Origin: Eledone cirrhosa
Lineage: Eukaryota
Direction of reading: 5' to 3'
Length of the DNA stretch: 64,000 nt
Assembly: GCA_964016885.1 (NCBI GenBank)
Contig: OZ024743.1
Coordinates: 107,074,001 to 107,138,000 of the forward strand
Shown here: in pieces, positions 3,745 to 60,190 of the stretch
Numbering within the stretch: position 1 is the first letter of the stretch
Layout of the letters: the number at the start of each line of letters is the position of its first letter
Translations under genes and position numbers: made by a program
Notes under the pieces: generated by a model
Told to the model about the DNA's origin: nothing
Databases searched by the model: none
Seen by the model: the letters and a program-made list of their open reading frames with translations, nothing else

Positions 3745-6700
3745 TACAGGCTGAAAAAGAGAGAAGGCCCATTATCATGGGCCATTCTCGCTACTTTCAC
3801 CCACCTTTCATAAAACTTGCTGGGGTAGAGCACCTCTCTCTCCGCATTCTGACCCTTCTCTTAAAACGGTATTTAAAGAAAAGGACCAGTTGTTGGCCAG
3901 AGAGAAAGGTGTCCGACTTCAGCCCTTTCAAACGTGTCCACCATACCACATCTTTAACCATGGCTATTACACAGAGTAAGACCGCCTATCCTTCATGTTT
4001 GAAGCGGGGAGGCGGCTTGATCGTTACAATGGACTCTGGTCAACCTGATTGGTCCCACTCGTGACAGCAGTCGTTCGACATAGCCCCACAGAGGGCAACG
4101 CCCGAGCAGTGTACCAATGCGTGCGCAACGGTTTCCTCGTCGCGGACGTATCTGGGACAGATTTTTTTCGAAAGGTCCCTACCCGGGCGCCCGTGTCTGT
4201 AGAGCTTTTCTCGAACGAGCAGCGCCCCTCGGTAGCACTGCCAGGCCGGGACTTCTGGAAGTTGTCCATAGGTCCCGGGCCAAATGTCCTCCGGAATAGG
4301 CTGGCCAGTTCGTCTTCCTTCATGCCTAGTGCTTGTCCGAGGGCGTCGTCGCACCTACTAACCACCAGCCCTCTATAGAATGATGAGGTGGAGTCTCCAC
4401 CGATAGCCGGGTCCGCCTGCCAGAGAGCCGTGAGCGCCTGGGCACACTCGGTGTGCCAGGCGCCCAGTTTTCTCGGTCTTTGCTTGACCCAGGACTGCAG
4501 CTCGGTGAGCGAGACGAGTCTCGGAAAGGCTCGCCTCACAAATGGGGCCCATACCGGTTGACAGGTGAGAAATACCTGGAGGTGCCGGAGCCTTAATGCG
4601 TGTTTACGCATCAACAGCCACGGCATCCTCAGCCCTCCTTTTGAAGGGTGTTAACAGCAGATGGATCTCCGCACCAAAGGAGCCCGCTTCTTCCAAAGGA
4701 ATTGGAAGAGTGCGTGCTCCATTTTGGTGAGCGTTTCCTTTGGGCAAGGCACGACGGTCATGCGGTAATAGATGACGGACGCTATATAAGCGTTCGCCAC
4801 CTCTGCTCGACCTTTCAGGAATACTTTGCACTCAGCCCACTAACGCGTCAGCGCAAACACCCTGTTCGATACCTCACCCAAGTTCTTCTCCACCTGGAGG
4901 TCTAGCCCGAACCAAATCCCGAGCAACTTCACCGGGCCCTCCGTCCAACGTCCGACGATGCCATTGGAGGCCATCGGTTTGCCCCTCCACTCGCCGAGTT
5001 GCAAACCGACTAACTTGTCCCGGTTCAGCTTAGCCCCTGTAAACGTTTCGTATTCCTCCAGTGAGGTGCCGATCACTCCGATTTCCGAGGCGGTTGACAC
5101 CATTACTGTCACGTCATCGGCGGAGGCCGACACCGCTTTCCCCAATCCCGGTTCCAAAGGGATGCCCTGTAACAACTCCACCTTCCGCAGCAGTGGGTCT
5201 AGGGCCAATACATACAGAAGGGAGGCGAGAGGGCATCCCTGTCGGATGGACGGCGTGATTTCGAACGGCTCCGAGAGGTAGCCGTTCACCTTGACCCTAG
5301 AGCAGATGCGGCTGCTGTGCATGGCAGTGATCCAGCACCTGAAAACGGGTCCGAAACCTGCCGCCACTAGCACCGCATTCGGGTAACGATGGTCGACCAT
5401 ATCGAACGCTTTATATTGATCCAAGTTGATCAGGGCCCCACCAAAGCCGGGTTCGTTCCCAACCCTCTCTATGATGTATCGCATGAGATGGAGGTTGTCG
5501 TGAATGGACCTGGACGGGATGGCGCATGTCTGCGCATCTCGCACCAGGTTGCCCACGACAAGCGCCAACCTCTTTGCTAACACCTTGGCCAAAATCTTTA
5601 ATTCTGCATTTAGCAGTGTTATGGGCCTAGAATTACTTATTTCATCCCCTTGTTCTCGTCCTTCCTCACTAGCGAGACTACGCCTTTGGTCACAGAACAT
5701 GGAATTCTCCCGTTCTGTTGCCAGTTGCAGTAGACCGCTTCGAGGAGATCGAAGAACAAGTCCAGCATACTTAAATACAATTCGTATGGAAGACCATCGA
5801 AGCCCGGAGATTTGCGTCTGCCGCATTGGCTCAGCACGTCCCCTATTTCAGCAGCTGAGATCGGCCCCTCGCAGGAATTCGCCTCCTCGTCCTAAAGACG
5901 CGACAGGCCGTCGAGGTATGGACTAAGGTCCATATCCACATCCAGCCCCTCGTCCCTTCCGAAAAATCGGGCAAAGTGCTTTTGAAAGGCCTCGCACATC
6001 TGCTTAGGTTCAAGGATCACCCGTCCATCCTGGTCTCGTAACGACCGGATAGTGGATCTAGTCCCACTTTTGGCTTCTGTCACGCGAGCCCAGTTAACAG
6101 CTTTGGCTCCCTCGTTTCCCAGAGCAAGTATTTTGCTTCGGACAACGCAGCCTTCGTGTTTCGCGTCGAAGAACTGGCCCAAGGCCGTTCTCGACGCTAG
6201 CACTCTGGCTACGTCGCCACTTCTAATTGCCTCTTCTACACTATCTACCAACTCACTTTCCTTCCTATTTCTATCTGAGGCTAACTCCTTACTAACTCCT
6301 ATTGAAGCTACTCTAATCTCTCTTTTGAGAGAGCCCCACCACCTGCTGTTGACGATGGCGCCCGTCAACCGCTCCTTAACTAATGTACTAATCCGGTTCC
6401 TGTAAGCTTTACTTGCCGGTAAGGACAAGTTGAGTTACCAGTAACCGGGTTCCTGTCTATGCGTTCTATCAAAGTTGACCATGGAGGTCACTAACTTGTG
6501 GTCTGAATAGCCAACCATGAGCATTTTTGGACAATTTAAAAGTCCCTATCCTTATTTCTAACTAAGAACCTATCTAGGTACGATCTAGATTGACCGCCGT
6601 GGTTTCTCCAAGTCCAGGTTGGCACAGTCGGAAAATCTAGTCGATATCTATCGGCCAGGTCGAATCGGCCGATTAACCCCTTGAGGCTGTTACAACCCCC

Positions 6701-7170
6701 TCTATCAGGACATGCCCTTACATAGTCCCAACGTGCATCTAGGATACCATTCCAGTCCCCCACTAAAAGCAAGGAGCGGGACGTCCCTAGAAAAGTCTCC
6801 AGACGATGGAAGAAGTCCGGCCGCGTTGACCCAAAAGGGCCGTATACGGCGACCAGCCTAAAAGCTCCGCCTTCACCACTGCCAATGTACAGAACAACTA
6901 GTCGACCCTCCGGGTCCAAGTGTACCGTCTGTGTAGCGTGACCCAGATTTTTTTTGCAGCAGAACGACAAGCCCACTCCGACCTTGACAGAGAGATGCGT
7001 GCATCTCAAAATCATCAAAGATGGGGGCCAGCTGTCGCACGCTGCTGATCCGGGCCTCGCAAATAACCATCACATTTATACATCGTGACCTGAGGTCATT
7101 TAGAAGCATTGCTTGCTTCCAAGGTGAGCCCAGGCCACGCGTTTAGAAAACCTATTCTCAACACAGCCAT
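3745..7170 (-). pseudogene. Tx1 ORF2 (APE endonuclease, reverse transcriptase, CCHC finger), frameshifted
   Basis: APE motifs LVGDWNG and SYLDRFLV. RT motifs RKSPGFDGLPYELY, RPITLLNAELKILAKVLAKRL, LDQYKAFDMVDH and IRQGCPLASLLYVLALDP. YADD is degraded to SADD. C-terminal CPRY..ETVAHALVHC. Confidence 0.92.
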
Positions 7171-7191
7171 GTTGGTGGTAAAGAGAAAGGC

Positions 7192-8738
7192 ACTAACCTC
7201 TCTGCGACCTAGGGACCGGGCGCACAATTTCCATGCGGGTGGGGGATGGGTTGTTGGGTGGAGTGGGGTGGAAGTGTAGGGGCATCAGTGTGTGGTGGGG
7301 TTGGGGTGTTTAGAGATGTGTGGGTGTCTGGGGGGGATTTTTTAGGAGGACACGGTTAATGGGTCTGACGCAGGGGGACCCCACGTCCTCTTTAAAAGTG
7401 TCTTTTAACATTTTGAAAATGACCATTGGGACTTTTATCATTTTTTAGATGGGGAAGCCCCGTTGCTTGTGCGAAATTCGAACCTTCGGTTTTTATTAAG
7501 TTGTTATTATAAATAACGTTTAACAATTTCTTGTTTTTTGTATTTAAGTAACTATATGCAAATTTTTCTTTCTGCGTGATGTTTTTTGTTTGCTGTTGTT
7601 GTGTGTTTTTTTGTGTTGATGTCTGTGTTATGTCTTGGAGAGGGGTTGGTTATATTTGTGTTGCTGTGATCTGTTTTCTTTTTTTTCTTTTAACTTTATG
7701 AAAGTGCCCCCCCCCCCTCGTCTGACGACGAAAGGGTGTCGTCTTCCGTATTCGAGGGGATGTGTTCATTTTCGGCTCGTGTTTGTGGTGTGGGTGTTAT
7801 TGTATTTGTTTTCTGTATGGGTGGGATTGTTTTCAGTTGTGCTTTAACTTGTGGTGTTAGTTGTTTTTGTGGTGGTGGTGGTGGAGGTTGTGTTGTTAGT
7901 GTTGTAGTTGTTGGTGTGGGCAAAATCGGTGTTTTTTATTTGCTTGGGAACAGGCAGCCCTCAGGTGACCTCTGCCACCACAGAGGTAACAAGCGGGTCG
8001 TCTACCCTCCACTGATGTGTAACTAGGCAAGCCCATCCAGCAATATGCGGTCGTTATCCTAGCAATTCGTTATGGCTGCATTTGCACCAGAACTTGCAGG
8101 TTAGTTCCACCGAACACGTTGCTGGAAGACTTACCTACCGAAATTACTGCATCCTCTTTCAAGTCGAGGAGGCCACACAGTACCGCCCAGAAATTAATAT
8201 CTGGATCGATACCGTGTATGGTCAATCTTTGTGTTTTTCTTCCCAAATAAGTGAGGAAGAAGGTAAATAAGGGGTACACAATTGGGGCCAGGGAATGTTT
8301 TTCGGCCGTCAATTTATCTTTCATTCGGATGGATAGACTACCGTAGAGTCTATCCTTCCGAATGAATACAATGTTTTTCAGATGATCTTTTAACGCCAGT
8401 TCAATCTCTGTCTGTGTGAGTTGTACTGGCTTACGGGTTTTGTTTGATATTGTCCTATAAATAATAGTTTTTAAGCTATTTTCTTTTTTTAGCTCTGGGG
8501 GAGAATTTAAAGAAAATAGACCATTCTCCTCCAAAGTTATATACTTCCGTGCATTTTCCATTTTCGAAATGTCAATGGGTTCGTACACGATAGTTTTTTT
8601 TTTATGCTTTGCGCGAACGTCATTTTGTTCGCCCCCTCTCTGCTTACATTTGTCGAAATGTGTTTTTTTTTGTTTTTTGTTGTTACAATTTTCAATTTTT
8701 GTTGTGTTTGTGTTATTTATGTTGGTGTATGCGTTCAC
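7192..8738 (-). pseudogene. Tx1 ORF1 (gag-like, zinc knuckle), frameshifted
   Basis: ORF 8070-8738 plus a CX2CX4HX4C knuckle (CYLCGGRGHLRAAC) near 7950-8000. The Pro/Thr-rich linker and C-terminal WKLC motif are shared with element B. Confidence 0.8.
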
Positions 8739-9295
8739 ATTTTTTTCCGGTTGTGGTTAGACTCCATTTTTTCAAAATGTTCACTGATATTTTCAGTATC
8801 CGAGAGACTTGTAGTTACAGCTACTCGTTCTCTTTCAGCTTTGCTATGGGCGTGGCGCCGTGAAAAGTCGAAACGGCATCCATTAATTTTGGCAATTTCT
8901 CCGAGTCAATTTTTTTCACATTTTTTTTATTAGGGTTAGGTTCCATTTTTTTCAATATTTCTAATAATTATTCTTTCAGTAGGGAGGTTTGTTGCCTCCG
9001 CTACCCGCTCTCCTTCAGTTTGTTTAGTGGGCGTATCATCGTTACCTGTGGTAATGGCTTCCATTAAGACTAGCGTAGAGGCAATTACAAGATTTTTAGG
9101 ATGAAAAATTTCACCCCAAAAGGGGTGAAATAAATTAACCCTAATGTCCGAAGACCCAGGCAAGGGGGTTAATTAACACTATAACGCAAGAATACAGACA
9201 AACACTTACTGTTAACACGTAATATCTCCAATACTTGAGGAGCCGATTTGAAGAGCATCTATGCCATCATGAGATAGATAGATAGATAGATAGAT

Positions 9296-9660
9296 TTCTT
9301 TATTTGCCACAGAGGCGTATAATAATGGGACATTACAAGACGTGATGGCGGGGATTTTACATAAAATATTTAAAAATAATGAATAACAATAAAGTATATA
9401 TAAAATAAAACAATCGAAGTCCCCAATAGGGGTGAACATTACTGCGGGGTTGTTTTACACCCCGTGGGTAGAAGAACCCTCAACACCAAGAACACGTTTT
9501 GTGGGTGTTCCCGTCTTCCTTCTGTTTGTCTTCCTCAAACTACAGGTTTATATACAGAAAAGGCCCATTCACTCGGGCCATTTTCGCCACATTCACCCAC
9601 CTTTTCAGTGAATTTATTGGGGTGTAGCACCTCTCTCTCCACTTTCACCGTTTCATGAAC
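9296..9660 (-). mobile_element. 3'-terminal fragment of a further Tx1 family member
   Basis: Homologous to the 3' ends of A and B (..KVEREVLHP..F.EKV; GTGGCAAATAAAGAAA terminus). It is followed by (TATC)n at 9272-9295. Confidence 0.8.
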
Positions 9661-9885
9661 TATTTCGCATAAAGGCGTAGAATATTTTGAGAAACTGACC
9701 TGATCAAATTTGACCTGGCAGTCCCTCTACAAATTGGTATAATAATGAAGGTTCACAGTCAAGAATTTCTATAGAAATTTAAGCAGAACTTACCCAGCAA
9801 GTTTAACGCGTGTGTCCATCCCAGAGATAGATAGATATAGATGGATGGATAGATAGATAGATAAATAGACACATGGATACATAGA

Positions 9886-12800
9886 TTAATTTCTTTATTA
9901 GCCACAAGGGCACAAAAGAAGGGGACAAATAAAAATGGGGAGTTTACATACAGGTATATGAAAATAAAATTATTGATAAAATAACAAATAACAATTGAAA
10001 TCCCCAATAGGGGGGAGGCGTTACACAAGGGTTGTACACACCCCGGAAAAATGTACAACCCTCATCTCCAGGAGCATCAAGAATGAGTACTCTCTTCCTG
10101 TCTTCCTCTTTTTCCTCAACCTACAGGCTTATATGGAGAGAAGGCCCAACCACTCGGGCCATCTTTTCCACATTCACCCTCCTTTTATAAAAATTTGCTG
10201 GGGTACAGCACCTCTCTCTCCATCCTGATTCTTCTTCCAAAATGATATTTGAAAAAAGGAATCAGTTGCTCGCCGGAGAGAAAGGTGTTTGACCTCAGCC
10301 CTTTTAACCCCTCTTTCACCATAGCCATAACACATAGGAAAACCGCCTCTCCCTCGTTTTTGAAGGATGGTAGCGGTTTGATCATGACAATGGACTCGGT
10401 GCTGATTGTCCCACCAGCGACAATAGTCGTTCTACATAGCCACACAGGTCGGTAACGCCCGGGCAGTGTACAAATGCGTGGGCGACGGTTTCCCCGTTGC
10501 ACACGCATCTCGGATAGATCTTTTTCGAAGAGTCCCTGCCCGGGCGCCCGTGTCTGTAGAGCTTGTCTCGAACTGGTAGAGCTCCTCGGTAGCACTGCCA
10601 GGCCAGGGACATTTGGAAGTTGTCCATTGGTCCCGCGCGGAAGGTCCTACCGAACAGACTGGCCAGTTCGTCCTCCTCTACGCCTAGAGTTTCTCCGAGC
10701 ACGTCGTCGCACTTGCTGCGGACCAACCCTCTATAGAATGTTGAAGTGGAGTCTCCACTGATCGCCGGGTCCGTTTGCCCGAGGACTGTGAGCGCCTGAG
10801 AACATTCGATGTGCCAGTCGCCCATTTTCCTCGGTCTTTGCATGACCCAGGACTGCAGCTCAGTCAGCGAGACGAGACGTGGGAAGGCTCGCCTCACAAA
10901 CGGGGCCCACACCGGTTGTCCGGTTGGCAGCAAATCTTCTCACCAAAGGAGCCCGTTTCTTCCAAAGGAATTGGAAGAGCGCGCGCTCCATTTTGTTGAG
11001 CATTTTGGCTGGACAAGGCACGACGGTCAAGCGGTAGTAGATGACGGACGCTATAAAAATGTTCGCCACCTTCGTTCGACCTTTCAAGGATAGTTGCACT
11101 CGGCCCACTTCTGGGTGAGCGCAAACACCTTGGTCGTCACCTCGTTCCAGTTCTTCTTCACCTGGAGGTCCGGACGAAACCAGACCCCGAGCAGCTTCAC
11201 CGGTCCTTCCGTCCAGCGTCCGATGACGCCATCGGAAGGCATCGTTTTGCCTCTCCACGTTCCGAGTTGCAAACCGACGGATTTATCCCGGTTCAGCTTC
11301 GCTCCTGTGAACCTTTCGTATTCCTCCAGTAATGTGCCGACCTCCCCGATTTGCGAGGTGCTCGACCCCATTACTGTCACGTCGCTTTTCGCAGTCCCGG
11401 TTCCAAAGGGATGCCCTTCAATAGCTCTAACTTCCGCAGTAGTGGCTCGAGAGTCAGTACGTACAGAAATAGTGGAGAGAGGGCATACCTGTCGGATGGA
11501 TCGCGTGATATGGAACGGCTCCGAGAGGTAGCCGTTCACCTTTACCCTTGAGCAGATGTTGCTGCTGTGCATTGCAGCATTCCATCCCCTGAACAAGGGT
11601 CCGAAGCCTACCGCCTCGAGCACCGCATTCGGGTAACGATGGTCAACCCTATCAACCCAGCCTTAGACTGTTCCAAGTTGATCAGGGCCCCATCAAAGCC
11701 GGGTTTACACCCTACCCTCTCTATGATGTATCGCATGAGGTGGAGGTTTTCGTGTATGGACCTGGTCGGGATTGCGCATGTCTGCACTTCTCCCACCACG
11801 TTTTCGACGACAAGCGCCAGCCTCTTTGCCAACACCTTGGCCAAAATCTCTAACTCTGTGTTTAGCAGAGTTATGGGCCAGAAGTTGCCTATGTCATCCC
11901 CCTTATTGTCGTCCTTCCTGACTAACGTGACTACGCCCTTGGTACAATAAATGGGAATTCTCCCGTTATGTACCAGTTGCAGTAGACCGCTTCCAGGAGA
12001 CCGGAGAACAAGTCCGGCATTGCTATGTAAAATTCGTAGGGTTGACCGCCGAGACCTGGAGATTTGCGTTTGGCGCATTGGCTCAACGCGTCTCCTATCT
12101 CAGCCGCCGAAATCGGCCTTTCGAAAAACTTCGCCTCGCTGTCCGAGAGTCGTGGTAGGCCCTCGAGATATGGACCGAAATCCATAATCCCTGCCGGTGC
12201 GCTGCCCTGCCCGAACAGTTGTGAAAAGTGCCGCTGAAAGGTCGCGCACATTAGCTTCGGCTCACGTATCACGCGCCGTCTCTGTTCTTCAAAGACCGAA
12301 TCGTGGACTTGCTGCTACTTTTCGCCTCCGCCACTCAGGCCCAGCTAACAGCTTTGGCTCCCTCGTTTCCCAGAGCACGTATTTTTCTTCTTACAACGCA
12401 GCCTTCATGCTTTGCGTCGAAGAACTGGTCCAAGGCCGTTCTCGTCGCTAGCACGCTGGCTACGTTGCCACTCCTAAGTGCCTCTTCTACGTTATCTACC
12501 AGTTCCTTTTCGGTTTTAGTTCTATCTAACACTAATTCTTTACTAAAACCTATCGAGTCTAATATAACTGCCCTCTTGAGAGATTACCACCATCTGTTGT
12601 TGACAATGGCCGCCGTCAAGTGATGCTTAACTAAAGTGCTAATCCGTCTTCTGTAGGCGTTGCATGTCGGTAACGACAAGTTCAGCTTCCAGTAGCCGGG
12701 TCCCTGTCTATGTCTTTTGTCAAGGTTGACTAAGCAGGTCACTAATTTGTGATCTGAATAGGCAACCATGAACATTTGTGGACAGCTTAACATGTCCCTA

Positions 12801-14395
12801 TCCTTCTTTCTAACTAGAACCCTATCTAGGTACGATCTAGATATTCCGCTAATATTAGTCCACGTCCACAGTGGCACAGTCGGAAAATCTAGTCGATATC
12901 TATCGGCCAGGTCAAATTGGCCGATTAACTGTTTGAGGCTGTTACACCGCCCTCTATCCAGACATGCTCCCACATAGTCCCAACGTGCATCTAGGATTCC
13001 ATTACCACTAACTGCAGCGAGCGGGACGTTTCCCCACTAACAGCAGGGAGCGGGACGTTCGCAAAAAAGTCTCTAGACGTTTGAAGAAGTCTGGCCGCGG
13101 AGTCCCGGATGGGGCATATGCGGCCACCAGCCTGAAGGCTCCACCTTCACTTCCGTTAACGTCTAGAACCACCAGTCGTCCCTCCGGGTTCAGATGTACC
13201 GTCTGTGTTACGAGGTCCAGGTGTTTCCGCAGCAAAACGGCAACCCCACCCCCATCTCCCGGTTGACAGAGAGATGCGTAGATCTCAAAGTCGTCGAAGA
13301 TGGTGGCCAGTTGTCGCTCTCTGTGAATCCTGGACTCGCAAATGGCTACTACATCCATACTGTGCAACCTGAGGTCGTTTAAGTGTTTGCCCTGTTTCCA
13401 GGGCATCCCCAGGCCTCGTACATTCACACATCCAACTCTTATATTGGCCATGTTGGTGCTGAAAAGTTAAAAGAAGAGTAAAATAAATCACTCACCTCTT
13501 CGTCTCCTGGGGACCAGGCTGCACAATTTCCATGTGGGTGTTGGAGGGGTTGTTTGGCGGGGTGGGGACGGAGATGTTTGGTGGGGAGGGGGTGTATTGT
13601 GGGATGGGGTGGGGGTGGGGAAACATTTTAACATGACTTGATTGTAGGGTTTGACGCAGGGGTTACCTACGTCGTTAGGAAATGTTACTTTTAACTGTTT
13701 ATGTGTGTCCATGGAGGTCCTAATCCTTTTAAGATTAGGATTCTCCGAAGAGTGTGTAAAAGTTTTCTCTTCGGTCTCTACCGAAGGGTTTTTATATATG
13801 GTGTCTGTTAAAGTTTTATTGTTAGTATTTATGTAGGTGTATCATTTTTGGTGTGTTGTGTTGCTTTTTGTCTGTAGTTCTTGTGTGTGTTTACGTTTTG
13901 TAGTAGGTGTTTTATTTTCACGAGGGGGGGGTTGTACTGTTTGCGTCGCTTGTGTTGGTGTTTGTGTGTTTTTGCATTTTTGTTTGTATTATGTCTTTTC
14001 TTTTTTCTTTTTACTGGTCAGAAAGGCTCTCCCTCATCGTCACTGTGTGACGATGATGAGGCCTCATCCGTGCTGTTGGGGAGGGGTACATTTTGGGGAG
14101 CTGTTATGTGTGTGGGTGTTTCTGGAGTTGTTTTAGGTGGGGAGGGTTGGGTGGGACTGTGTTTGTCGTTTGTTTTGTTGTCACTATTTTTTTATGTTGG
14201 TGTTGTTGTGGTGCTGGTGGTGATTATTGTGCTGGTGTTGCAGGTGTTGGCAGTAGTGCCTTTTTTGGCTAGTTAGCCGAGGACAGGAAGCTCTCAGGTG
14301 ACCCCTGCTTAAGCATTGGTAACATGAGGGCCTACCCTCAACTGAAATGTTTATGTATATAAGCCCATCCAGCAACACACGTTCCGGGATCCTGG
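9886..14395 (-). mobile_element. Tx1-type non-LTR retrotransposon B, 5'-truncated in ORF1, inactivated
   Basis: ORF1 remnant with [14 protein letters not shown], then ORF2 APE/RT/zinc finger and a 3'UTR with AATAAA. It has (GATA)n on both sides (9825-9885, 14396-14650). Confidence 0.9.
10130..13451 (-). pseudogene. Tx1 ORF2 (APE-RT-zinc finger), frameshifted
   Basis: MANIRVGCVNVRGL..., SYLDRVLV, SDHKLV, GPGYWKLN, PITLLNTELEILAKVLAKRL, ETVAHAFVHC. The catalytic YADD region is deleted. Confidence 0.92.
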
Positions 14396-21779: not shown

Positions 21780-22960
21780 AATTGGCAGTATCGACAGAGC
21801 GTCATTCAATACGATTTGTGGATTTCGTTACGACTTTCCTTTCTGTGATTTCAAGTCCCGTTGAGGTCAAGGTTGTCTTTCATCCGTCCGTAGTCGCTAA
21901 AGTACAGTATCAAACAAGGTTTAGGTTGATGTAATCAACTTTCACTTTCCCCAAAATTATTGTTATTTATACACAATTAAATTCTAATTGAGTTAAAATA
22001 AAACCTCCCCAGGAGAGACCGTAAATTATAATTTATGTATCAGTCTACAATATAAATGTTATTCTCCATTTTCTTTGTTCGATTTAATATTTTAGAATAT
22101 GTGAGGAGGGTTTGGTTCTCTATGTTGTGAAGGCTGTGTGACTACATAAAAAAGGGGGTAAGAATGTTAAGCGATTCGACATTCAATTTTTATTATTATT
22201 AATAGTAACGGTCGATTGGGCGGTGGATTGGCAGTATCGGTAGAGGGCTGGACGCCATGCTTTCCAGCATAGTTACGTCCCTTTACGATCTGAGTTCAAA
22301 TCCCGCCGAGGTTAACTTTGCCTTTCATCCTTACGGGGTCGATAAAATAAAGTACAAGTAATACTCTGGGTAATTGCTGGCCTTGTGACAAAAGTAGTAA
22401 CAATTAATAGTAACGGTCTCTGATTTAAGCAAAGGTGCCAACAATTTTGGTGGAGGGGAAAGTCGAATAAATCGTCCCAGTGCTTTTAATGGTACTGTAT
22501 TTTATTATCTCTCCAGGAGGCTAAACGACGAAGTTGACTTTGGTGGGTTTGAAACTCCTACGTTGGGAACCGGACCAAATAACACTTTTCCTGACTCTAA
22601 TGAGTCTAATGACTCTAATGATAGTCTCTAATCTAGAGCCAAGGTCAGCAAATTTGGAATGACGAATGTCGATTTAACTGACCCCAGTGTTTGACTGCTA
22701 CTTTATTTTATCAAATTCGGAAAGATGAACCGCACATTTCACCGAGGTGAATCTTCAACTCAGAAACGTAAAATGCTGTCACGTAATATGCATGACAATT
22801 TGTCAGTCACTTTAACGAATCTGCTCATCCCCAATTCTTGTGTTCCTTTTCTAATTTAGGCATACCTTCAGCAATTTCACTGTCAGGTATTGATTCATTA
22901 TACTGGAATGGTACGATATTTGATTAAAGACAAATTTCACCACGGGAGCAGTTGAATTCA
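21780..22960. mobile_element. Cluster of about five SINE copies in both orientations
   Basis: A degenerate + copy at ~21782-21960, an intact + copy at 22218-22405, and degenerate - copies at ~22415-22580, ~22625-22810 and ~22845-22960. Confidence 0.7.
22218..22405 (+). mobile_element. Intact tRNA-derived SINE
   Basis: Box A-like TGGCAGTATCGG, box B GAGTTCAAATCCC, and the conserved central domain. Near-identical to 47693-47880. Confidence 0.9.
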
Positions 22961-25395: not shown

Positions 25396-25471
<76 letters not shown>

Positions 25472-25519
25472 CGTAAAATAAGAAAATTTTAAAACATTAA
25501 CTTACTTACTAAAATTTTC

Positions 25520-25600
25520 ACTCCAACTAATTAGTTTCTGCAATGGGATAAAGACAGTTACGTAATAAACTGTCGAGAATTCATTGCGTCATCAGGGAGT
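25520..25600 (-). ncRNA. Type I hammerhead ribozyme (copy 1)
   Basis: ACUCC-CUGAUGA-cGCAAUG aauucuc GACAGUU uauuacgu AACUGUC uuuaucc CAUUGCa-GAAAC UAAUUA GUU-GGAGU. It has an intact core, a 5-bp stem I with imperfect extension, and a palindromic stem III. Confidence 0.85.
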
Positions 25601-26052
25601 CTATTCTCAGCTAAGTCTCCAGGCAATGCGCGGACACTGGGGACTCATATAAAAATAATAATAATTTGGTAAATGGAACAGCTAGCGGCGACTGGATTCC
25701 ATGCACTGAAAATCTCGCTGTCACTGGTCAAATGGCAGATTCTAAAGAATCAATCACGTGACACTGAGGCTAGTCGGTAGGAGTGGGATGGTAAGATGAC
25801 AGAAGCCTACTAACACCCCAATAAATTAGTAGTGGTTTTGGCAGGTTTGCTCGACAAATAAGTAATTTGGAGATAAATATAGAGAATTTAGTATATCTAC
25901 TAACATATGCGTACAGATGTACGCTAATGCTAGCAAATACACAGGTTATGTCATAGTACCTAGGTGGTTCAATGCAGGAGGATGCAGAACAATAATATAA
26001 AAGACGTAAAATAAAAATTTTTTAAAAAATTAACTTACTTACTAAAATTTTC

Positions 26053-26133
26053 ACTCCAACTAATTAGTTTCTGCAATGGGACAAAGACAGTTACGTAATA
26101 AACTGTCGAGAATTCATTGCGTCATCAGGGAGT
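26053..26133 (-). ncRNA. Type I hammerhead ribozyme (copy 2)
   Basis: Identical to copy 1 except for one change in the stem II internal loop. Confidence 0.85.
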
Positions 26134-26440
26134 CTATTCTCAGCTAAATTTCCAGGCAATACGCGGACACTGGGGACTCATATAAAAATAATAATAATTC
26201 GGTAAATGGAACAGCTAGCGGGGACTGGATTCCATGCACTGAAAATCTCGCTGTCACTGGTCAAATGGCAGATTCTAAAGAATCAATCACGTGACACTGA
26301 GGCTAGTCGGTAGGAGTGGGATGGTAAGATGACAGAAGCCTACTAACACCCGAATAAATTAGTAGTGGTTTTGGCAGGTTTGCTCGACAAATAAGTAATT
26401 TGGAGATAAATATAGAGAATTTAGTATATCTACTAACATA

Positions 26441-26760
26441 GATGGCGTAGGACAGAACAAAGGAGAGGCACAAAAACAAAAACGAAGAAAATACTCCCCA
26501 GTCACTGAAGAGGTCACATAATGTGTGACGAAAGAACTTTGACAATATATAAACAACCATCTGGTTGTGGAACCAACCAACCAACCGGAAATTCATAAAT
26601 TCCTAAATTTATAAATTTATTATAATAAATTGAAGTAAAAGCAACTGGTGCGTGTATTTCTTATTGGCAACATGACCTTTCCAGAGTATAACAATATCGG
26701 TTTCAACACACGTTTTCAGATAAAGAATCTTGCTAAGCAAATTCAGAAACGAAATACATA
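26441..26760 (+). mobile_element. Small non-coding repeat with a minimal hammerhead, ending in (TA)n
   Basis: Homologous along its length to 41560-41815. Confidence 0.75.
26501..26543 (+). ncRNA. Minimal type I hammerhead motif (atypical)
   Basis: GUCA-CUGAAGA-g-GUCACA uaaug UGUGAC-GAAAG aa CUU-UGAC. It has a 4-bp stem I, a very short stem III and one extra G before stem II. Confidence 0.6.
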
Positions 26761-26819
26761 TATATATATTTATATATATATGTATATATGTGTATATATA
26801 TATATGCATATATATATAT

Positions 26820-26924
<105 letters not shown>

Positions 26925-29150: not shown

Positions 29151-29632
29151 GTATATATATGTATATGTATATAGATATGTATATATATATATCAACTAGA
29201 AATAGATTGACATATATATATATAAAATAAACATATGAAACAATCACAGGGAATAATTTGTAAAGAATGTAAGCGCACATAGCTAGGTAGGTAACTAATT
29301 AAAGTTTAACCAGAACTTCAAATATAAATACCTTTTAAAATGATTAATCTCGCTTGTATATATTTATTTAAGTAAGAAATATATTTCACCAATTAATCCG
29401 TATATCACAGTAGTCAAATAACGGATGGTCACCAAAGGAGAAGAAGATACCTACCTGCGTTTACAACGCAAATGCAAATCTGTGAATGACTCGAACCACG
29501 TGTTGCATTTTTTTAAAAATAGACACATTGCACAACGTCATCCCAGTGGCGTGAATAAGACCATCGACAGCCAGAAATAGCAGCCGAGTCTATTCAACTG
29601 AATTAGCTCAACAATCAAGGGGCCGTATATAT

Positions 29633-29962
<330 letters not shown>

Positions 29963-29983: not shown

Positions 29984-30061
29984 AATTACCTCATTACCAG
30001 AGGTTTCCCGAACAAGACGAATACGAAAAACGTCCTCATTCGTTCGTCGGACAAGGCAATT
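29984..30061 (-). ncRNA. Type I hammerhead motif with U4C core variant, GUA triplet
   Basis: AAUUGCCUUGU-CCGACGA-aCGAAUgAGGACG..CGUCUUGUUCGg-GAAACC ucu GGUA-AUGAGGUAAUU. It has an 11-bp stem I (3 G-U), an 11-bp stem II and a 3-bp stem III. Confidence 0.75.
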
Positions 30062-31752: not shown

Positions 31753-31843
31753 GACCCCGACGGCTCAGCTCTGGCTGTTTCGACAGCTAGATTCGAGTTC
31801 GGATCTAGCTGTCGAAAAGGCTGGAGCTCAGCCGTCGGGTGTC
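31753..31843 (+). other. Long GC-rich hairpin (~44-bp stem)
   Basis: cccgacggctcagctctggctgtttcgacagctagattcga gt tcggatctagctgtcgaaaaggctggagctcagccgtcggg. Confidence 0.8.
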
Positions 31844-38167: not shown

Positions 38168-38355
38168 GGATTGGCTGCAGCGGTTGAGGAGCGGACGCCA
38201 TTCTTTGCAGCATAGAGTTACGTCCCTTTACGGTCTGAGTTAATATCGCGCCGATGTTAACTTTGTCTTTCATCCTTATAGGGTCGATAAAATAAACCAG
38301 CAGTAATGCATTAGGATTATTGCTGGCCTTGTGGCAAAAGTAGAAGCAATTATTT
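38168..38355 (+). mobile_element. tRNA-derived SINE, moderately diverged
   Basis: Aligns along its full length with 22218-22405. Confidence 0.85.
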
Positions 38356-41559: not shown

Positions 41560-41815
41560 ACAAGATGGACAGAACAAAGGTGGGACAAGAAATAAAACCT
41601 AGTCAGTGAGGAGGTCACAGAATGCGTGTCGAAATAACTTTGACAAGATATAAACATCCATCCGGTAATCGAACCAACTAACCGGAAATGTATGATACAC
41701 TTAAGTGTTTTTATTGGCAGCATGACCTTCCCGAAAGTATAACAATATCTGTTTCAAAACAGATTTTCAGATAAGAAATCTTGCAAAACAAATTCGAAAA
41801 GGAAATATATATATA
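41560..41815 (+). mobile_element. Second copy of the 26441-26760 repeat, degenerate hammerhead at 41602-41644
   Basis: GUCA-GUGAGGA-GGUCAC..GUGUC-GAAA uaac UU-UGAC. Stem I is retained and C3 is mutated. Confidence 0.7.
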
Positions 41816-42734: not shown

Positions 42735-43691
42735 TATTATATCGTTAATTACCTCGACGTTACCCTTAATTTGTCGAATGGCTTGGACTACCCGTATAGA
42801 AAGCCGAATGATACGTTTAATTACATAAGTAAGCATTCTAACCATCCTGCCAGCATAACCAGGAACCTGGTGAGAAACGTTTCTTTGAGGCTTTCCAGTC
42901 TATCTACAAACGAGCATATTTTCAACGACCATTCCACTTATTACAATGAAGCTCTTGCTCGGAGTGGATTTGTCGATAAGGTAGCATATACAGAGTACGA
43001 GAATAGACCTAGGAAAAGTAGATCCCGACGCATTATATGGCCCACCATATAATATGGAGGTCGCCACACCATTAGCTAAGATCTTTCTATCCCTTATTAT
43101 GAAGCATTTCCCCCCAGCACATAAATATAGTAAAACTTTTAATAGAAATACCATTAAAATGCCTTACTCTACGGCTCCTAAATTTGCACATAACATCACA
43201 GCTTCAAATTTAGCTAAATTACCTATCCGTAGGAACAGGTGCGACCCTGTAGCTACTACTAGCTGTAATTGTAGGAATCAGGTTCACTGCCCCCTATCTG
43301 GGAAATAATTGTCTACAAATGTTAGGTTGAAACACCCACGTCCCGTAGGGCCTACATAGGGTTAACCGCCAATCGATTCAAGCAGCGTCTTTACATGCAT
43401 ACCTATTATTTTCTTAACCCTTTAAAAAGGAATATGACGTCACTTTCAGCATATATCTGGAGTCTAAAAGACAACCACACCCAATATAAGATACACTGTG
43501 AGAGCCTAGCTAAGGCTAGATCGTATAACGGAAATAAAAGACCATGTGAACTCTGCGCCGCTGAGGCCCTGGAAATACTCTACGCCAAAGACCACATCTT
43601 AAACAAAAAATCTGGGGGAATTTCGGCTTGTAAACATAAATTGCACAAAACATTCCTGTATTACAGCCCCACATTATACCCTAACGGATAG
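42735..43691 (+). pseudogene. Penelope-like element: RT C-terminus plus GIY-YIG endonuclease, frameshifted
   Basis: VNYLDVTLNL..PYRKPND..SNHP (PLE thumb), CNCRNQVHCPLSG, AYIGLTANRFKQR, TSLSAYIWSLK, CELC..E..LNKK. It starts at (TA)n. Confidence 0.9.
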
Positions 43692-44820: not shown

Positions 44821-45419
44821 GTAGTTAAGCGAAGCAAGACCAGAAATATAATGTTTCTGGATCAATCAATGGTAAGAGAGTTATTGAGTTGGTGCAGAAA
44901 AATATATGTAACATAGAATAATATTATGGAGCAGATCTTCGGAACTTGGGGAAAGATAATGAGATTATTACTATATATAAAGCAGAACAAAATAAAGATG
45001 AAATGAAAATACAAATAAAAAGGGAGGGTTACGTGTCCGTAAAGAATCATCAGATTAGCAACTCCCTAGATGGGGCAGCTTGGCACTGGAGAATTTCATG
45101 TGTATGGTATAAATAAACATCATATATCTGTCGAGGCTGATGGTAAACACTGGTGCCTATCACATACCAAAATGGCTTCCTGTAGGGCAACTATCTTATT
45201 GTATAGAGATGGGTTTCAAGGTAGGTAACTATTTGGAGAGCCAACAATCCCACTAGGAGCTGTAACCAAGGTAGGGTAGGGAGGTAGCTTATAGGTATAG
45301 TTGCAGTGGGATTTGAGCTTAGGGATGTAAGGTATAGGTGCTTATGTGATGGACTAATTTGTTAGTTTAGGGAGGGGCATGACTAAAGGATGGGCTAATC
45401 TGGGTCGAATATTCTGTTG

Positions 45420-45701
45420 GCGAAGGAACTCGCTCTGCGGTGGTGGCAGTTGATCACCAAATCGTTCCTGTCATTATTGGGGAGGGGGGGGGGGCTGGAC
45501 AAAGTTATGTGATATGCCTCGGTAAGGCAGAGATCGCAAGAGTTTTTTCTCCCATTAAATGCAGGAGATCAAGCTAAGTTATCCCAAGCTATTGAATGTT
45601 CAATGTTAGGTAATCTAAGGTTTTTAATGAGCCTAGTTAGAGAAGTTGAGCATCTATTGCTAGAGTCGCGGCGGAAAATGAGTGCGCATTAATGCGAACC
45701 T

Positions 45702-47692: not shown

Positions 47693-47880
47693 TGCGGTGG
47701 ATTGGGAGTATCGGTAGAGGGTCGGACGCCATGCTTTCCAGCATAGTTACGTCCCTTTATGATCTGAGTTCAAATCCCGCCGAGGTTGACTTTGCCTTTC
47801 ATCCTTACGGGGTCGATAAAATAAAGTACCAGTAATGCACTGGGTGATTGCTGGCCTTGTGCCTAAAGCAGAAACAATTA
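47693..47880 (+). mobile_element. Intact tRNA-derived SINE
   Basis: Boxes A and B, the central domain and a TTA-rich tail. Near-identical to 22218. Confidence 0.9.
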
Positions 47881-48613
47881 TTTTATTATTTTATTTATTA
47901 ATTATTTTCACACACTTCTTAGCTCTCCCAATGTTATTTATCATTTATTTATTTTTTGTTCGCTATTTTGTAGAGTATAAGAGAGAGAAAGAAAGAGAGG
48001 CGATGATAAAGAGAAAGGGAGTGAGGCGGATGGGGAGAGAAAGACAATAAGAAAAGAGAAAATATGGGAGAGAGAAAAAAGTAGAGAAGCAGGAGAGAGG
48101 GAGCGTGATTGGAGGGATTCTTTACCTAATGTGTGTCCGCGTATATATATATTTTTACACACACATATGTGTGTGTTATGGGGGGGGGGGCGTTCATTAG
48201 CAGACAATATATGTTACCATCAAAGCTTAATTTCTACATATGTCTAAACAAATCACAGATGCTTTTATAGAAGTTGTATATATATGTATGTATTTAACAG
48301 ACAAAAAAAACGGTATTTTTAAAAGATATTTTTTGAATATATTATTTTCCGCTGTTATTTCAATTAACACAGAACATATTTTTTTTGTAGTGTTTGTCGT
48401 TTTTGGGGGGTTTTTTTGTGTGTGTGGGGTGGGGGGTGGGGGGGATAAAAATTGATAATTTCAGAATACAATCTGAAATCCAAATATCTTCTACATATGT
48501 CTAAAATTAATTACACCTAATATAAATTCCTATAAAGAGATCATTTAAAACAACTTTACTGAGTGAACAATACATTCTATAATTGTTTCTATTTCGGAAA
48601 GAGTGTGGTGTGT

Positions 48614-48704: not shown

Positions 48705-51700
48705 ATGCCTAGAAAACGCTCCAGATCATTATATGGAAGGTCATCTTCAGAGGCTAAGAGAAAGAAAACACAGTGAACTGAAGAAAGTGAAGAAGTTCAG
48801 CATACCCGTCTAGCTGCTAACAGAGCCCAAACAGCTTTAGCACGAGCACACCGTTTGGATGAAAGGGAACAAAGGACTGCTTCTACACAAGAACAACAAA
48901 TTAAGGAACAGCAGCAAATCAGACGAAATGCTAATCAAGCATATCGTTCTACTGCCCGAGCAGGATAACAAGCCACAAGTAAAATGAACTGGCTGATGGG
49001 TGTTTTTTCTTATGACTCCCAAAAGGACTACAACAGTAATCCACAAATCAACATTGGGAAAATGAAAAAATGCTGCCAGTATTGTAGTGCCAAGAAGTGG
49101 GCAGCAGAAACACCAAGTCTATGCTACTCAAAAGGCAAAATGAGCCTTAAAACAATACAGGAACCTCCTGAATTTCTGAAGATTCTGCTCCTTCAGCATA
49201 CACCAGAAGCACAACACTTCAATAAATACATCATAAAATATAATTCTACCTTTCAAATGACATCTGTTGGGGCTGACAGGAATGTGATTGACTTTAGATT
49301 CTATACAACTTATAACATTCAGGGACAGTGTTACCACTTTCACAGGAGCCTCAAAAATTTGTGCAGGTTTACTTTATGTGTTGAAATGAAACACAGGCAC
49401 AACAAAGATGTACCAATGTCCATGGTGGATTGCAGTTCTACATAGTCATAAAGTTACAAGAAATGCTTCACCAACATCACATGTACGTCAGTGTATTTAA
49501 ATATGCACTGGATCATATGAACAACACCAGAGATCGTAAAATCATCATTTTCAACGCAAATTCAATGCACCTGTCACTGATGAAGTTGCAATCATAATAT
49601 TTGATGAACAGCATGAATGACGTGACATTGTTTTGCAAAAAACGAAGTGGACATTTGGAGCGAATTTGTGAAACTCATAGAGCCTATGATTCACTCCAAT
49701 ATCCGCTCATCTTTTGAAATGGTCAAGATGGATATCATTTTCAGCTATGGTAGATCAGCCCAGGAAAGGGACAATAAACTGGCCGATCAACCAGCTGCAA
49801 ATAATTCTATGCTTATCATTTCATGGTACGTGATCACTTCAACCAAATTCTGCGATTCAAAGTAACTAGCCAGTTCATGGTGGACATGTATGCCAACATT
49901 GAAACAAATAGATTGGGTTTTCTGCGGAGGAATCAATCTAAGTTGAGAGCAGATAACTACATCTACTTTAGAGATGCCATCAATTCTGATGTTGACCAAA
50001 GAAATATTGGCCAGCCAGTCATACTACCATCAAGCTTCACGGGAGGACCACGTTACATGTACATGCATGAACGTACGCAAGATGCAATGGCCTATGTCAG
50101 AACACTTGGTCGGCCAGAACTCTTCATTACATTTACATGCAATTCAAACTGGTCAGACATATCAAATGAATTATTTCAAAATCAAAAATCAAAGGATCGA
50201 CTTGACCCCATTGCTCGGGTTTTCCATGATAAGCAACAAAAAAAACTCATCTGGTTCCTAAAAGAATGAAGAATCTTTGGTCAGCTTAGTGCTTGGATGA
50301 CCACTATTTAGTGGCAGAAGAGAAGTCTTCCTCACTCTCATACACTAATCTGGTGCAAGGAGAAGATAAGACCGGATGATGTTGATAAGGTCATTTCAGC
50401 AGAGTTGCCTGATAAAGGTGGTGATCCAGAGCTCTTTGAAACCATCAAGTACAAGATCATTCATGGTCCATGTGGAGTTATCAATCCAGCCTCTCCCTGT
50501 ATGAAAGATAAAAAATGCAGCAAACATTATCCTAGAGCTTTTATTCGGGAAACTCGGACTGACAATAATGGATACCCCCTTTATCGTAGGCGTAGACCAG
50601 AACATGGAGGCAATACTGCAAGCCTAACAGTTGGAGGAGCGGAGCTGACCATAAACAATCAGTCGGTCGTCCCACACAACAAATTGTTGTGTAAACTTTT
50701 AAAAGTTCATATCATATGTTGAGTATTGCAGCTCCATCAAGGCAATCCTATATGTCACAAAATATATCAACAATGGCAGTGACATGGCTTTCTTTATTAT
50801 TGATAAAGAACTCAATGATGATGGGCTAGATGAGGTTAAACGGTATCAAACAGGTCGATACATCTCCAGCAATGAAGCTATCTGGCGAAGCTTTGGATTT
50901 GATATCCACCGACACCACCCAAAAGTGGTCAACCTCGCAGTCCATCTGGACAATGGACAGAGAGTGTACTTCACTGAAATCACTGCTCATCAGTTGGCAC
51001 ACGCATCAGATGACACTACACTAACTGCATTCTTTAAACTCTGCCAGATTGATAAATTTGCTCGATCCCTCCTATATGCTGAAGTCCCCACATACTACAC
51101 ATGGACCAATTTCAAGAGCTGGAATCGAAGAAAGCAGGGTCAGTTAGTGGAAGGTCATGAAGTTAAGTCAAGTGATGCTATTGGGCGTGTTTACAATGTC
51201 CATCCCAACAACAGAGAATGTTTTTATTTAGGGCTACATCTGAATACTGTTAGAGGACCAACGTCACTTGAGGATCTTAGGTGCTTCAGAGGAAGGGAAT
51301 GCGCAACATGCCAAGAAGCATGTAAACAGCATGGAATCCTGCAAGACAATGGACACTGGAAGAAGTGCCTAGAAGAAGCAGCCATCACTCAAGTAGCCAG
51401 TCAAATAAAACAAGTATTTGCTATTATGCTCACAGCATGTGGAATTGATGAAGCTCATCTACTCTGGCAGGAGTAGAAAAACAATATGTCGGACGACTTT
51501 CTACACCTAGCCCGAATACATCGAGGGAATATGTATATGGAATATACCTCCAGGATTTACAATCAAGCTCTCTGTGACCTGTCCCATCGAGTTCAGGCAA
51601 TGAATAGCACGTTAGCTAAGTTCGGGATGCCAGAGCCAGATGAAGAAATGGAGGTAGCACAAAACATTTTCCAGGAGACAAACTACGATATTCAAGAATT

Positions 51701-53051
51701 GCGTAAGTTTGTGGATGAAAATGAACCTCGATTGAGGGATACCAGAAATACGCCTAACACAACATCATAGAACACATACAAAATGACAAGGGAGGACTTT
51801 TCTTCATCGATGCTCCTGCTGACACAGGCAAGACATTCCTCATAAACCTCCTGCTTGCAAAAGTTCGCCAAAAGCAACATATTTCCCTTGCTGTGGCTTC
51901 AAGTGGCATTGCAGCAACACTTCTGGATGGAGGAAGAACTGCACACTTCATGTTTCAGCTGCCTATAGATCTCACACGGCATGAACAATCTTTTTGCAAC
52001 ATCAAGAACTCACGCAAGGGCAAGCTTCTGCAAACATGCAAGATGATAATATGGGATGAAGCTACTATGAGCCATAAAGGAGCAATTAAAGCTTTGGACC
52101 GGGCGATAAGGGATCTGAGAGAAAATAGTTGCATAGTGGGAGGAGTAACAATGGTTCTTGCTGGTGATTTCAGACAAACTCTGCCTGTAATTCTTCGAGG
52201 GACTCGAGCTGATCAGGTCATTGCCTGTCTGAAAATATCCTATCTCTGGCTCCACTTTCAACTGTTGAGCCTTACAACTAACATGCGAGTGCACTTATCT
52301 GGTGACGACGGTGTCAGTGAGTTTGCCATCCAACTACTTAAATTGGGAAATGAACTTCTTGAAAAGGATTCCAATGACCATATTCAGTTGTCATTTGGCC
52401 ATATCATTGACACAGAACAAGAACTAATTGCCAGGCAATGTGATCCGAAATGGCTCTGTGAACGAGCAATCTTAGCACCTAAAAATGTTGCTGTGAAAGA
52501 AATCAACTGAAGGCTGCTGGAGATGTTACCGGGAGAGAAAATATGCTACAAATCAGTTGACACAATCACTTCTCAAGACCAGGTTGTAAAGTATCCAACT
52601 AAATTTTTGAACAGTCTTGAACAAGCGGGAATTCCTCCACAGAACCTGATACTGAAGCTTGGAGCATCCGTTATGCTACTTCGCAATCTGGATCCTCCAA
52701 AACTTTGTAATGGCACAAGACTCATCATCAAAAATATGATGTCCAATGTTCTAGAAGTTGCGATCATGTCGGGAAAATTTGCTGTTGACAATTGTTTCAT
52801 TCCCAGATTACCTCTGAAGCCAACTGATTTGCCATTTTAATTTCAAAGACTTCAATTTCTGATCAGGCTCAGCTTTGCCATGAACATTAATAAATCTCAA
52901 GGGCAATCATAGAAAGTCGTTGGGTTGAATCTGGCAGATCCTGTCTTTCCACATGGTCAACTCTATGTTGGCACAACAAGGGTTGGGAACCCTAATTGTC
53001 CCTTTACATGGCAAAACCAAGAATGTTGTTTATCCAGAGGCTTTGGAGTGA
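48705..53051 (+). pseudogene. Helitron Rep-helicase (HUH Rep plus PIF1-family helicase), multiple stops and frameshifts
   Basis: ILPSSFTGGPRYM, FITFTCN, WQKRSLPHSH (HUH), HGPCG, YVTKYINNG (Y2), Walker A DAPADTGKTF, WDEATM, GDFRQTLPV, LCNGTRL, HGQLYV, and the terminal TKNVVYPEALE*. Confidence 0.95.
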
Positions 53052-57425: not shown

Positions 57426-57448
57426 TAATCGATGTGATATATATATAT

Positions 57449-57809
57449 ATTAGAAATTAGTATTTGGTTCTCGAAAATAGCGATGTATGTATAAATGTAC
57501 CTATAGTATATTCGATAGTATACTGTATGTCTATTTTAAAATATTTTGAAGACGATTTGTTATGAATTTTAAAGTAGTGACTACGTCACATATTTACCCT
57601 CGGCAAAGACAAAGGGGAGAATCGGTACTACCATCGATTACTCCGTTTGGCATTTCAGAGACTAAGTACGTGACGTAGTCACTACTTGAAAATTCATAGC
57701 GAATGGTCTTCAAAATACTTATAAATCAACATACAGTATATTATCAAATATACTATATGGACATTCATATATACTTCGCTATTTTAGAGCACCAATACTA
57801 ATTTCTAAT
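57449..57809. mobile_element. ~360-bp foldback/MITE with ~170-bp imperfect inverted arms
   Basis: attagaaattagtatttggttctcgaaaatagcga...gtagtgactacgtcac pairs with gtgacgtagtcactac...tcgctattttagagcaccaatactaatttctaat. Extra arms occur at 58035-58175 and 20430-20563. Confidence 0.85.
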
Positions 57810-58655: not shown

Positions 58656-59649
58656 TGTGTGTGTGTGTGTGTGTGTATAGGATATGAAGCATTCATCTAG
58701 GCGTAATCAAGAGGCTGGCAAACCTAGTATGTCGTTGATTTGTCAACCCATTGACCTTTGCTCTGGAGATAAATAGTAACAACACACAGTGTAACAATTT
58801 CTAAACACACACGCTCATTTGCGTATATTCACACTACATTAAATATACACACAACAGTAAACATACACATTCACTTCCTCCAATGCTTACATATAGTTCA
58901 GCACAGGCTTATCCACACTACACACGCATCAGCATACTAGTCGGCGCCCACAAGTTTACAAACATTCACATTGCATATCATAAAAAACTGGCGCTCAAAA
59001 TTGTTTTGAAAAAACAGCGTTTACATTGAATTTTGTGAAATACTTATCCCAAATAAACACATCGTTAGGAATATTGTGTATATAGACAGTTGTACGATGA
59101 TTCATGTTGATGACTCTAAATTCTGTTATTTGTCTGTACAATCTCATGTGTGTAAGCTCATTTAGTCTATTATTATTTCATTCTTTTACTGATTTGACTC
59201 ATTCGATAGCCACCATGTTGAACATCGCCTTGAAGTGATTATCCTGCTCAATTCCTGAAACACAAATTTTAGAGACGTAGGGAGAATCAACATGAAAGAA
59301 AACCGGTCTGTAATCATTTGTGTATTCGGGGAAACAAATACAAAGACACGCGAACATTCTCCCTCGTACACAGTGTCACACACACAAACACATGCATTTG
59401 TATGTATATTTATCTATCTTGCTATCATGCTTTCTATCTATCAACCATATTTGTTACATACTATATCGATAAACTGGGTCATTGAAGATAGGTCTTCATT
59501 TACGTCCTATAAGAAAGTGTTTTTCTAGGAGTGCCAAGAAATTCCTATGTACATTTTTTGTAACACTGAGTGAGAAAGGTTGGCTGAACCAAATTATTGT
59601 TTATATCTATTTCTCTTTCTATTGGTAAAATTTATTAGGAGGGGGAGTA

Positions 59650-60190
59650 ACTAATGTTATCGGAGAAACCGCTCTCGGCTCACGCCAACGGAGTTATCTT
59701 CAATAGACAGGCTGACACTCGGATATTCCTGGGTTAAAAATATGAGAGCCCGCATCATCACCAATCAAAAGAGCTCTGTTCCAAACGGATGACGTTGCAG
59801 AAGGCCAGAAACATGCCCTCTACAACAACATATTCGCAGACATCTATGAGGCTGAAGTTACATCCACTTTAACAGATCAACAGCAGGAGGTCAAACCATA
59901 TGTAGGTATGTCGGAGGATTAAAGAACGCTTCCTTAACCATCAGACGATATTTAGACACTCTGATAAGCAATCGCCCACGAAGCTGCCAAGCCGGATATG
60001 GACGCTCAAAGAAGCAGACGTGAATTACGCTATCAATTAGAAATTTCTGGTCAAATCCAAGCCGTGCGGAAATGGAGAAATGTCTTTTAAGCTAAATATT
60101 GATGAAAAAGTGAATATCTTGTAGATGTTTCGTAATTGCAATTGCCTTAACAAAAGAGTCGATTTTTAAAAAATCATTGCCAGCATGGTG
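59650..60190 (+). pseudogene. Penelope-like GIY-YIG remnant
   Basis: CRRPETCPL..IYEAEVT..KPYVGMSE..KERFLNH..IWTLKE..CLNKR, with stops. Confidence 0.85.

Follow-up and report, generated by a model that had tools for sequence, protein, structure and literature searches.

A 533-bp non-coding unit lies in 1.84 tandem copies, each repeat bearing a hammerhead motif, in the 64-kb window studied here (the whole stretch of DNA analysed, 64,000 nucleotides). In our judgement it is probably an animal non-LTR retrozyme, an abundant unit whose RNA would be cut by paired ribozymes and re-inserted at (TA)n by Penelope-like machinery. This kind of element is already well described and the overall system is known. 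The reading draws on the repeats, the geometry of their motifs, the abundance of the family, the recurrence of the 533-bp period elsewhere and covariation in a hairpin. An initial sequence-only reading had proposed a retrozyme-like, non-autonomous element, and the tandem, motif-bearing, non-coding units and their multi-copy family support it.

The repeat unit and its hammerhead motif

Sequence comparison finds two ungapped direct repeats of 446 bp each, 25462-25907 and 25995-26440, with 11 mismatches (97.5% identity) and a period of 533 bp, as the sequence-only reading had described. On that description the 87 bp between them would be a spacer; because a strong hairpin spans the border of repeat and 'spacer', the true unit is better stated as 533 bp, and the locus as 1.84 head-to-tail copies rather than '446-bp repeats plus spacer'. 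On the minus strand, copy 1 (25462-25907) is the 3' 446 bp of the unit, 25908-25994 is the 87-bp rest, covered in public data as deeply as the other parts, and copy 2 (25995-26440) is a 5'-truncated unit ending inside the border hairpin. Copy 1 emerges, as had been noted, from a (TA)n microsatellite (25438-25466, with (CT)n before it) that adjoins the 3' end of the element and is its likely insertion target; 58 nt separate this 3' end from the copy-1 cut site. Where a target-site duplication was sought, one end of the unit lies in (TA)n and the other at a junction with another repeat.

Read as a circle, the unit has longest ATG ORFs of 26 aa (minus) and 35 aa (plus) and no ORF remnant, in keeping with its earlier description as non-coding. 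There are no tRNA genes in the 64-kb window; for a Pol III promoter, the ribozyme strand has neither an A nor a B box, and the box-like matches on the plus strand stand in no sensible order. The copies differ by 2.5%, which would be about 3.5 My if the octopus clock quoted in the available part of PMC13282606 and the host apply and the copies started identical. This divergence, together with polymorphism at many family positions, leaves the earlier description of the family as recently active weak.

Each copy carries a type I hammerhead motif on the minus strand, at 25520-25600 (core start 25595, predicted cut after 25525) and 26053-26133 (core start 26128, predicted cut after 26058). Both consist of a 5-bp stem I, CUGAUGA, a stem II built of 6 bp, a 7x7 internal loop and a 7-bp hairpin, then GAAA, a palindromic stem III and GUU, a poor cleavage triplet; this geometry bears out the palindromic stem III and long two-part stem II reported at first. 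Internal loops are predicted in both helices, and the canonical sizes (helix I about 6 bp, helix II about 4 bp) are not those of the unit motif. The core letters CUGAnGA, GAAA and UH (U16.1) are present around the three helices of both copies, so far justifying the term 'core-intact'. It fails at the base of stem II (position 10.1-11.1), where G-C is normal and C26121 opposes A26072, a non-canonical C·A pair that the sequence-only reading missed. Cuts at both sites would release a predicted monomer of 533 nt (25525-26057, minus strand, 37% GC), for which the coordinates and arithmetic first given were right.

A strict descriptor (exact core; stem I at least 5, stem II at least 6 and stem III at least 3) matched twice in the window and never in 60 dinucleotide shuffles of it. 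With a loose exact-core descriptor, four distinct cores were found (26128, 25595, 26505 and 1246) against a null mean of 0.07 and maximum of 1. The Rfam search that the sequence-only reading had named as a check gave no hammerhead match on 25470-26450 (981 bases) up to E 10, and none for the unit over 12 kb at E 5. The G10.1-C11.1 pair is termed 'highly conserved' in PMC4209133, and its conservation is reported in PMC3088659 as well; departure from it weighs against efficient cleavage. Natural active motifs with U·U at this position are described (PMC3088659, PMC7229834), and no natural C·A was found in the literature searched, in the parts available; Lünse et al. 2017 may show such variants. 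We expect that the C·A pair lowers the odds of efficient cleavage.

For the lone motif, folding predicts an off state: CUGAU binds AUUAG of stem III, and this fold is 2.5 kcal/mol more stable than the active one. Two isolated motifs co-fold as a symmetric dimer (-53.8 versus 2 x -22.1). In a 641-nt tandem RNA, for which long-range folding is unreliable, the palindromes of the two copies pair with a probability >0.97. Measured from the minimum, folds as monomers are 9-14 kcal/mol higher and the full double hammerhead is 3.9 higher; of the two junctions in the free fold, the one at the 3' cut site alone is populated, its reciprocal reaching 4%. The circular monomer is more stable than its shuffles (z -4.4; the plus strand also gives -3.5), and its stem I is 3% formed, an upstream hairpin taking up that stem. 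CUGAU·AUUAG was considered as the lock of the circle and rejected: the pairing is held in the isolated motif, though only 3% of it is present in the circle. The single ribozyme and the circle are thus predicted to be off and the palindrome-linked dimer to be favoured, in silico agreement with the dimeric folding through stem III suggested at the outset.

The family in public data and the border hairpin

Public data were mapped to 25908-26745, a region in which the unit and its right-hand neighbour are counted together, for 4 of 17 listed runs (contigs and RAD reads); X1 and X15 share one species label, X5 has a second and X6 a third. None of the 17 listed runs was recorded as RNA. The region drew 11,024 X1 contigs, 145,537 X15 reads, 135 X5 contigs and 8 X6 contigs, covering 30 of 30 bins in X1, X15 and X5 and 24 of 30 in X6; these depths cannot be read as numbers of copies, and the source sample is possibly X1. 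The joint from 26440 to 25908/25909 occurs in five X1 contigs (summed depth 2,913), one X5 contig and 247 + 246 X15 reads, with 41 more running to 25927, beside a mean depth of 694. Half of the X15 reads spanning the joint carry an extra letter that is missing from the window sequence, so they come from other copies, and there too the repeat end is followed by the 87 bp. Support is weaker for the step in other copies from these 87 bp to a following unit (25994/25995), which has behind it the depth at 25999 (1,434 X15 reads) and one X6 contig having 30 letters on its short side, below the 31-letter rule.

Many family positions vary at 20-90%. The unit is an abundant, heterogeneous multi-copy family, found also under two other species labels; this bears out the family that had been proposed, and reads and contigs of several runs rule out for it the single local duplication or artefact that had been set against the proposal. 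A chance motif, or an assembly in which haplotypes were written in tandem, is scarcely credible: some room for such an error is left in that none of the listed contigs runs across the entire stretch and reads did not confirm the junction 26440/26442, which is specific to this locus, but the 60 shuffles gave no match and the 533-bp joint recurs in three runs under two species labels. For the family this explanation is already largely refuted. Pattern scans elsewhere returned 52 viral, 0 + 6 metagenome and 2 prokaryotic loci, which we ascribe to chance, the longest alignment among all 60 being 26 nt.

The hairpin straddling the border of repeat and 'spacer' (25891-25942, minus) has 22 bp; as read on the minus strand, four of these pairs are G·U. 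Its stability has a z of -7.2, none of 200 shuffles being as stable, and it is worth -27.8 kcal/mol on the minus strand versus -13.1 on the plus strand. Variants were read by eye in the 12 of 60 table rows listed, two of which, from X15 and X5, extend over the upper 6-bp stem; in each, all 6 of its 6 pairs are retained on the minus strand. Among the eight changed upper-stem pairs, four are changed on both sides and four become G·U (A·C if on the plus strand), representing fewer independent events because the X15 and X5 variants share changes. In the X1 row three lower-stem letters are changed: two give U·G, and one breaks its pair unless the partner, which lies outside the row, has changed. 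To the extent that sequence variants can tell, this covariation shows an RNA-level constraint on the ribozyme strand. Copy 2 ends inside the hairpin, as a reverse transcriptase stalling at the structure might leave it.

The core itself was followed through the family in the same way. Among the 40 best-supported of 205 variant sites in the four runs, the C·A, GAAA and GUU positions and the core letters are absent and the near-fixed differences at 26082, 26148, 26161 and 26352 are present, the family having copy 1's letter at each; for this reason the variant core seems typical of the family. Excess conservation of the ribozyme was hinted at by the deepest X5 contig (2/100 substitutions in the motif versus 27/208 beside it, p 0.001), a hint unsupported once all seven listed X5 unit records were pooled (11.7% divergence in the motif versus 11.4% outside). 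One of 23 listed unit variants falls inside the motif (p 0.12).

These figures bear on another explanation, in which a satellite-like repeat derived from a retrozyme has a decayed ribozyme and spreads at the DNA level only, its pair of copies here being a local duplication. It would accommodate the C·A pair, GUU, the lack of an Rfam match and the absence of excess conservation in the pooled X5 records listed; 10 of the 11 inter-copy differences fall within the initial 228 bp of the 446 (post hoc p 0.007), a pattern that might result from partial gene conversion. We nevertheless consider it improbable, since neither copy has lost a catalytic letter and the family seems to have kept them as well, covariation in the hairpin is on the ribozyme strand, and the unit is truncated at 5' while its 3' end sits at (TA)n.

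The neighbouring element and other motifs of the window

The sequence-only reading overlooked a second hammerhead element on the opposite strand, joined to the unit at 26440/26442. At 26442-26756 (plus) lies the 5'-truncated 3' end of a different repeat, set head-to-head with the unit and ending at (TA)n; a (TA)n-rich tract (26755-26922) closes the composite on the right. Its minimal Penelope-type motif (26501-26543, plus; CUGAAGA, predicted cut after 26539) has an extra nucleotide before a 7-bp stem II and a vestigial stem III, is weak alone (fold z -1.2) and has no Rfam match. This repeat is about tenfold deeper than the unit in X1, most of its copies continuing leftwards with other sequence, and it has a decayed paralog at 41590-41807 (plus) in which the hammerhead core is decayed. 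Unit and neighbour point outwards, both ending at (TA)n, and their junction shows short ATG(G)CGTA similarity. The (TA)n-bounded composite could be the trace of a single Penelope-driven insertion in which two different RNAs were copied; two successive insertions account for it equally well.

The neighbour also invites a reading in which the repeats are the pseudo-LTR (pLTR) end of an autonomous Penelope-like element, a truncated partial tandem whose hammerhead works for that element, with no independent 533-nt circle. Penelope-like elements have type I hammerheads in their pLTRs, partial tandems, inverted truncated neighbours and a preference for (TA)n (PMC4209133, PMC8557442, in the parts available); the locus presents a partial tandem, a microsatellite target and an inverted, truncated, head-to-head neighbour with a typical minimal motif, and Penelope-type coding remnants lie in the same window. 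We think this reading unlikely. The unit has no ORF remnant, no RT or GIY-YIG ORF is found between or beside the repeats (25462-26756), and tblastn with 154 Penelope-type proteins gave no match in the unit or anywhere in that interval. Also against it are the hairpin across the border of repeat and 'spacer', a 'spacer' covered as deeply as the rest, and the fact that most X15 reads at 26440 run into it (534 versus a mean depth of 694), with no alternative continuation among the loose ends listed.

The coding remnants are at 42744-43690 (plus), 45416-45670 (minus) and about 59481-59916; all are broken and end in a GIY-YIG-like domain. The first has 2,256 relatives, including a 727-aa protein matched at its C-terminus, and five relatives that were scanned gave one weak GIY-YIG match and no RT match. 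We take the remnants to be of Penelope type from their motifs, beside the relatives and the weak GIY-YIG match. No exact-core hammerhead was found downstream of them in the window.

Two further hammerhead-like motifs lie on the minus strand. The first (1205-1254; core 1246, predicted cut after 1213) has intact core letters, GUC and an 8-bp stem I; its stem II starts with A·A, its stem III is self-complementary, and its Rfam HH9 match is weak (E 0.21, 15.5 bits versus a gathering score of 52). The second (29984-30061; core 30050) has U4C, an 11-bp stem I and a long stem II with A·G at its base; Rfam gave it no hammerhead match, and its predicted cut lies 34 nt before a (TA)n tract, a layout like that of the 533-bp unit. 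With one core mismatch allowed and stem I of at least 8, three matches were found in the window versus none in 40 shuffles, a test that is not airtight; the third match (57029) is antisense to an RT remnant and looks accidental. Both motifs share a stem II-base mismatch with the unit motif, and its appearance in two unrelated motifs speaks against simple decay of the unit's ribozyme. Tentatively, the lineage (probably cephalopods) might harbour several retrozyme families built on a so far undescribed subtype of hammerhead with a 1x1 stem II-base mismatch and a monomer-off/dimer-on switch. In such a subtype C·A, A·A and A·G could be unpaired and the self-complementary stem III could double as a core lock, a possibility that we hold no more firmly. 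Such families, missed by standard models, may give rise to abundant unrecognised circular RNAs.

The window as a whole is AT-rich animal DNA, rich in microsatellites and decayed transposons. It contains a Helitron-like remnant with a PIF1 helicase at 48969-52510 (plus; Pfam E 2e-56) and broken non-LTR retrotransposon remnants with RT domains at 4000-13500 (minus) and 55077-57453 (plus), which we presume from their motifs to be L1/Tx1-like and RTE-like, respectively. A dispersed SINE-like repeat, 83-95% alike among its copies (870-1035, 22220-22412, 38168-38355 and 47694-47895), is presumably an octopus SINE and gives the probable cephalopod host its basis; relatives of the PIF1 helicase were not diagnostic of the host, and an indexed protein search gave no match. 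A short direct repeat, with arms roughly 543 bp from each other (29186-29234 and 29729-29779), and a neighbouring inverted repeat of 61 bp (29634-29694 and 29778-29838) possibly form a complex insertion, and a GC-rich, near-perfect hairpin at 31760-31835 gives a shape-only Rfam hit below the gathering score.

Proposed cycle and comparison with known systems

For the retrozyme that we favour, a cycle can be proposed, of which we infer every RNA step and the mobilising enzyme. Read-through transcription of the tandem copies would give a minus-strand RNA. According to the folding predictions, the lone ribozyme would be off and two copies would pair via the 12-nt palindrome to form a double hammerhead that, with its C·A pair, would probably be slow to cut after GUU. 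By extension from coral, mussel and axolotl retrozymes, an RtcB-type ligase would circularise the 533-nt monomer, and the circle would keep the ribozyme off. A Penelope-like RT/GIY-YIG protein might then nick (TA)n and prime on the unit's short AUAUA stretch, which sits 58 nt past the cut site. Because the 3' end lies this far beyond the cut, a freshly cut linear monomer would not have been the template; a circle or an uncut multimer fits, and from either more than one unit could be copied before copying stopped inside the border hairpin. Finally, the truncated end would have been joined to the oppositely oriented 3' end of the second hammerhead-bearing repeat.

The ribozyme variant and its (probably cephalopod) host look unreported. 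If the motif cleaves, it extends retrozymes to a host group without a case in the literature searched, it enlarges the range of hammerhead cores that are tolerated, at the most conserved of the flanking pairs, and it means that Rfam-based scans under-count ribozymes in such genomes. Copy-specific differences at 25549/26082 versus 25482-25495/26015-26028 flank the cut and would separate a ligated 533-nt circle from linear read-through. That the 3' end lies 58 nt beyond the cut is relevant to the question of which template Penelope enzymes copy. No cephalopod retrozyme or hammerhead appeared in the literature searched, in the parts available, though supplements, Lünse et al. 2017 or repeat libraries may contain one; the available main text of PMC13282606 has no occurrence of ribozyme, retrozyme or hammerhead.

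Comparisons with known systems draw on the available parts of the sources cited. Like animal non-LTR retrozymes (Cervera & de la Peña 2020, PMC7229834; Li, Clavereau & Pollet 2026, bioRxiv 10.64898/2026.07.22.740005), the locus has tandem non-coding units with one type I hammerhead each and GC under 50%, a high copy number, a structured predicted circle and co-occurring Penelope-like elements. At 533 bp the unit exceeds the 150-450 bp of PMC7229834 and falls within the 51-972 bp of the 2026 bioRxiv survey, in which only one of nine predicted retrozyme dimers cleaved in vitro. The axolotl HHR_Amex2, whose helix II begins with a U·U mismatch in place of the C·A of the unit, cleaves better as a dimer.

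Hammerheads in Penelope-like pLTRs (Cervera & de la Peña 2014, PMC4209133; Craig et al. 2021, PMC8557442) resemble the unit motif in lying near the 3' end, with a palindromic helix III, a long helix II and a short helix I, and elements bearing them share with the locus the (TA)n target and the partial tandem with an inverted truncated neighbour (PMC8557442). The motif of the right-hand element has the pLTR-type extra nucleotide between 9 and 10.1 (PMC4209133), whereas in the unit motif stem II is flanked by an unpaired nucleotide on each side instead of on one. Also unlike pLTRs, the unit has no linked ORF, its inverted neighbour belongs to another family, and no 30-40-bp tail was seen. The double hammerheads of newt and salamander satellites have a palindromic, weak helix III and dimer activity in tandem transcripts (PMC7229834, PMC6765202), as is predicted here; in contrast to them, stem III of the unit could form 3 bp alone, and its predicted off states come from pairings that compete with the core or stem I. 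Set against known retrozymes, the two-part long stem II, GUU and the 12-nt palindrome distinguish the unit, and the element is real and of a known kind, with a non-standard ribozyme.
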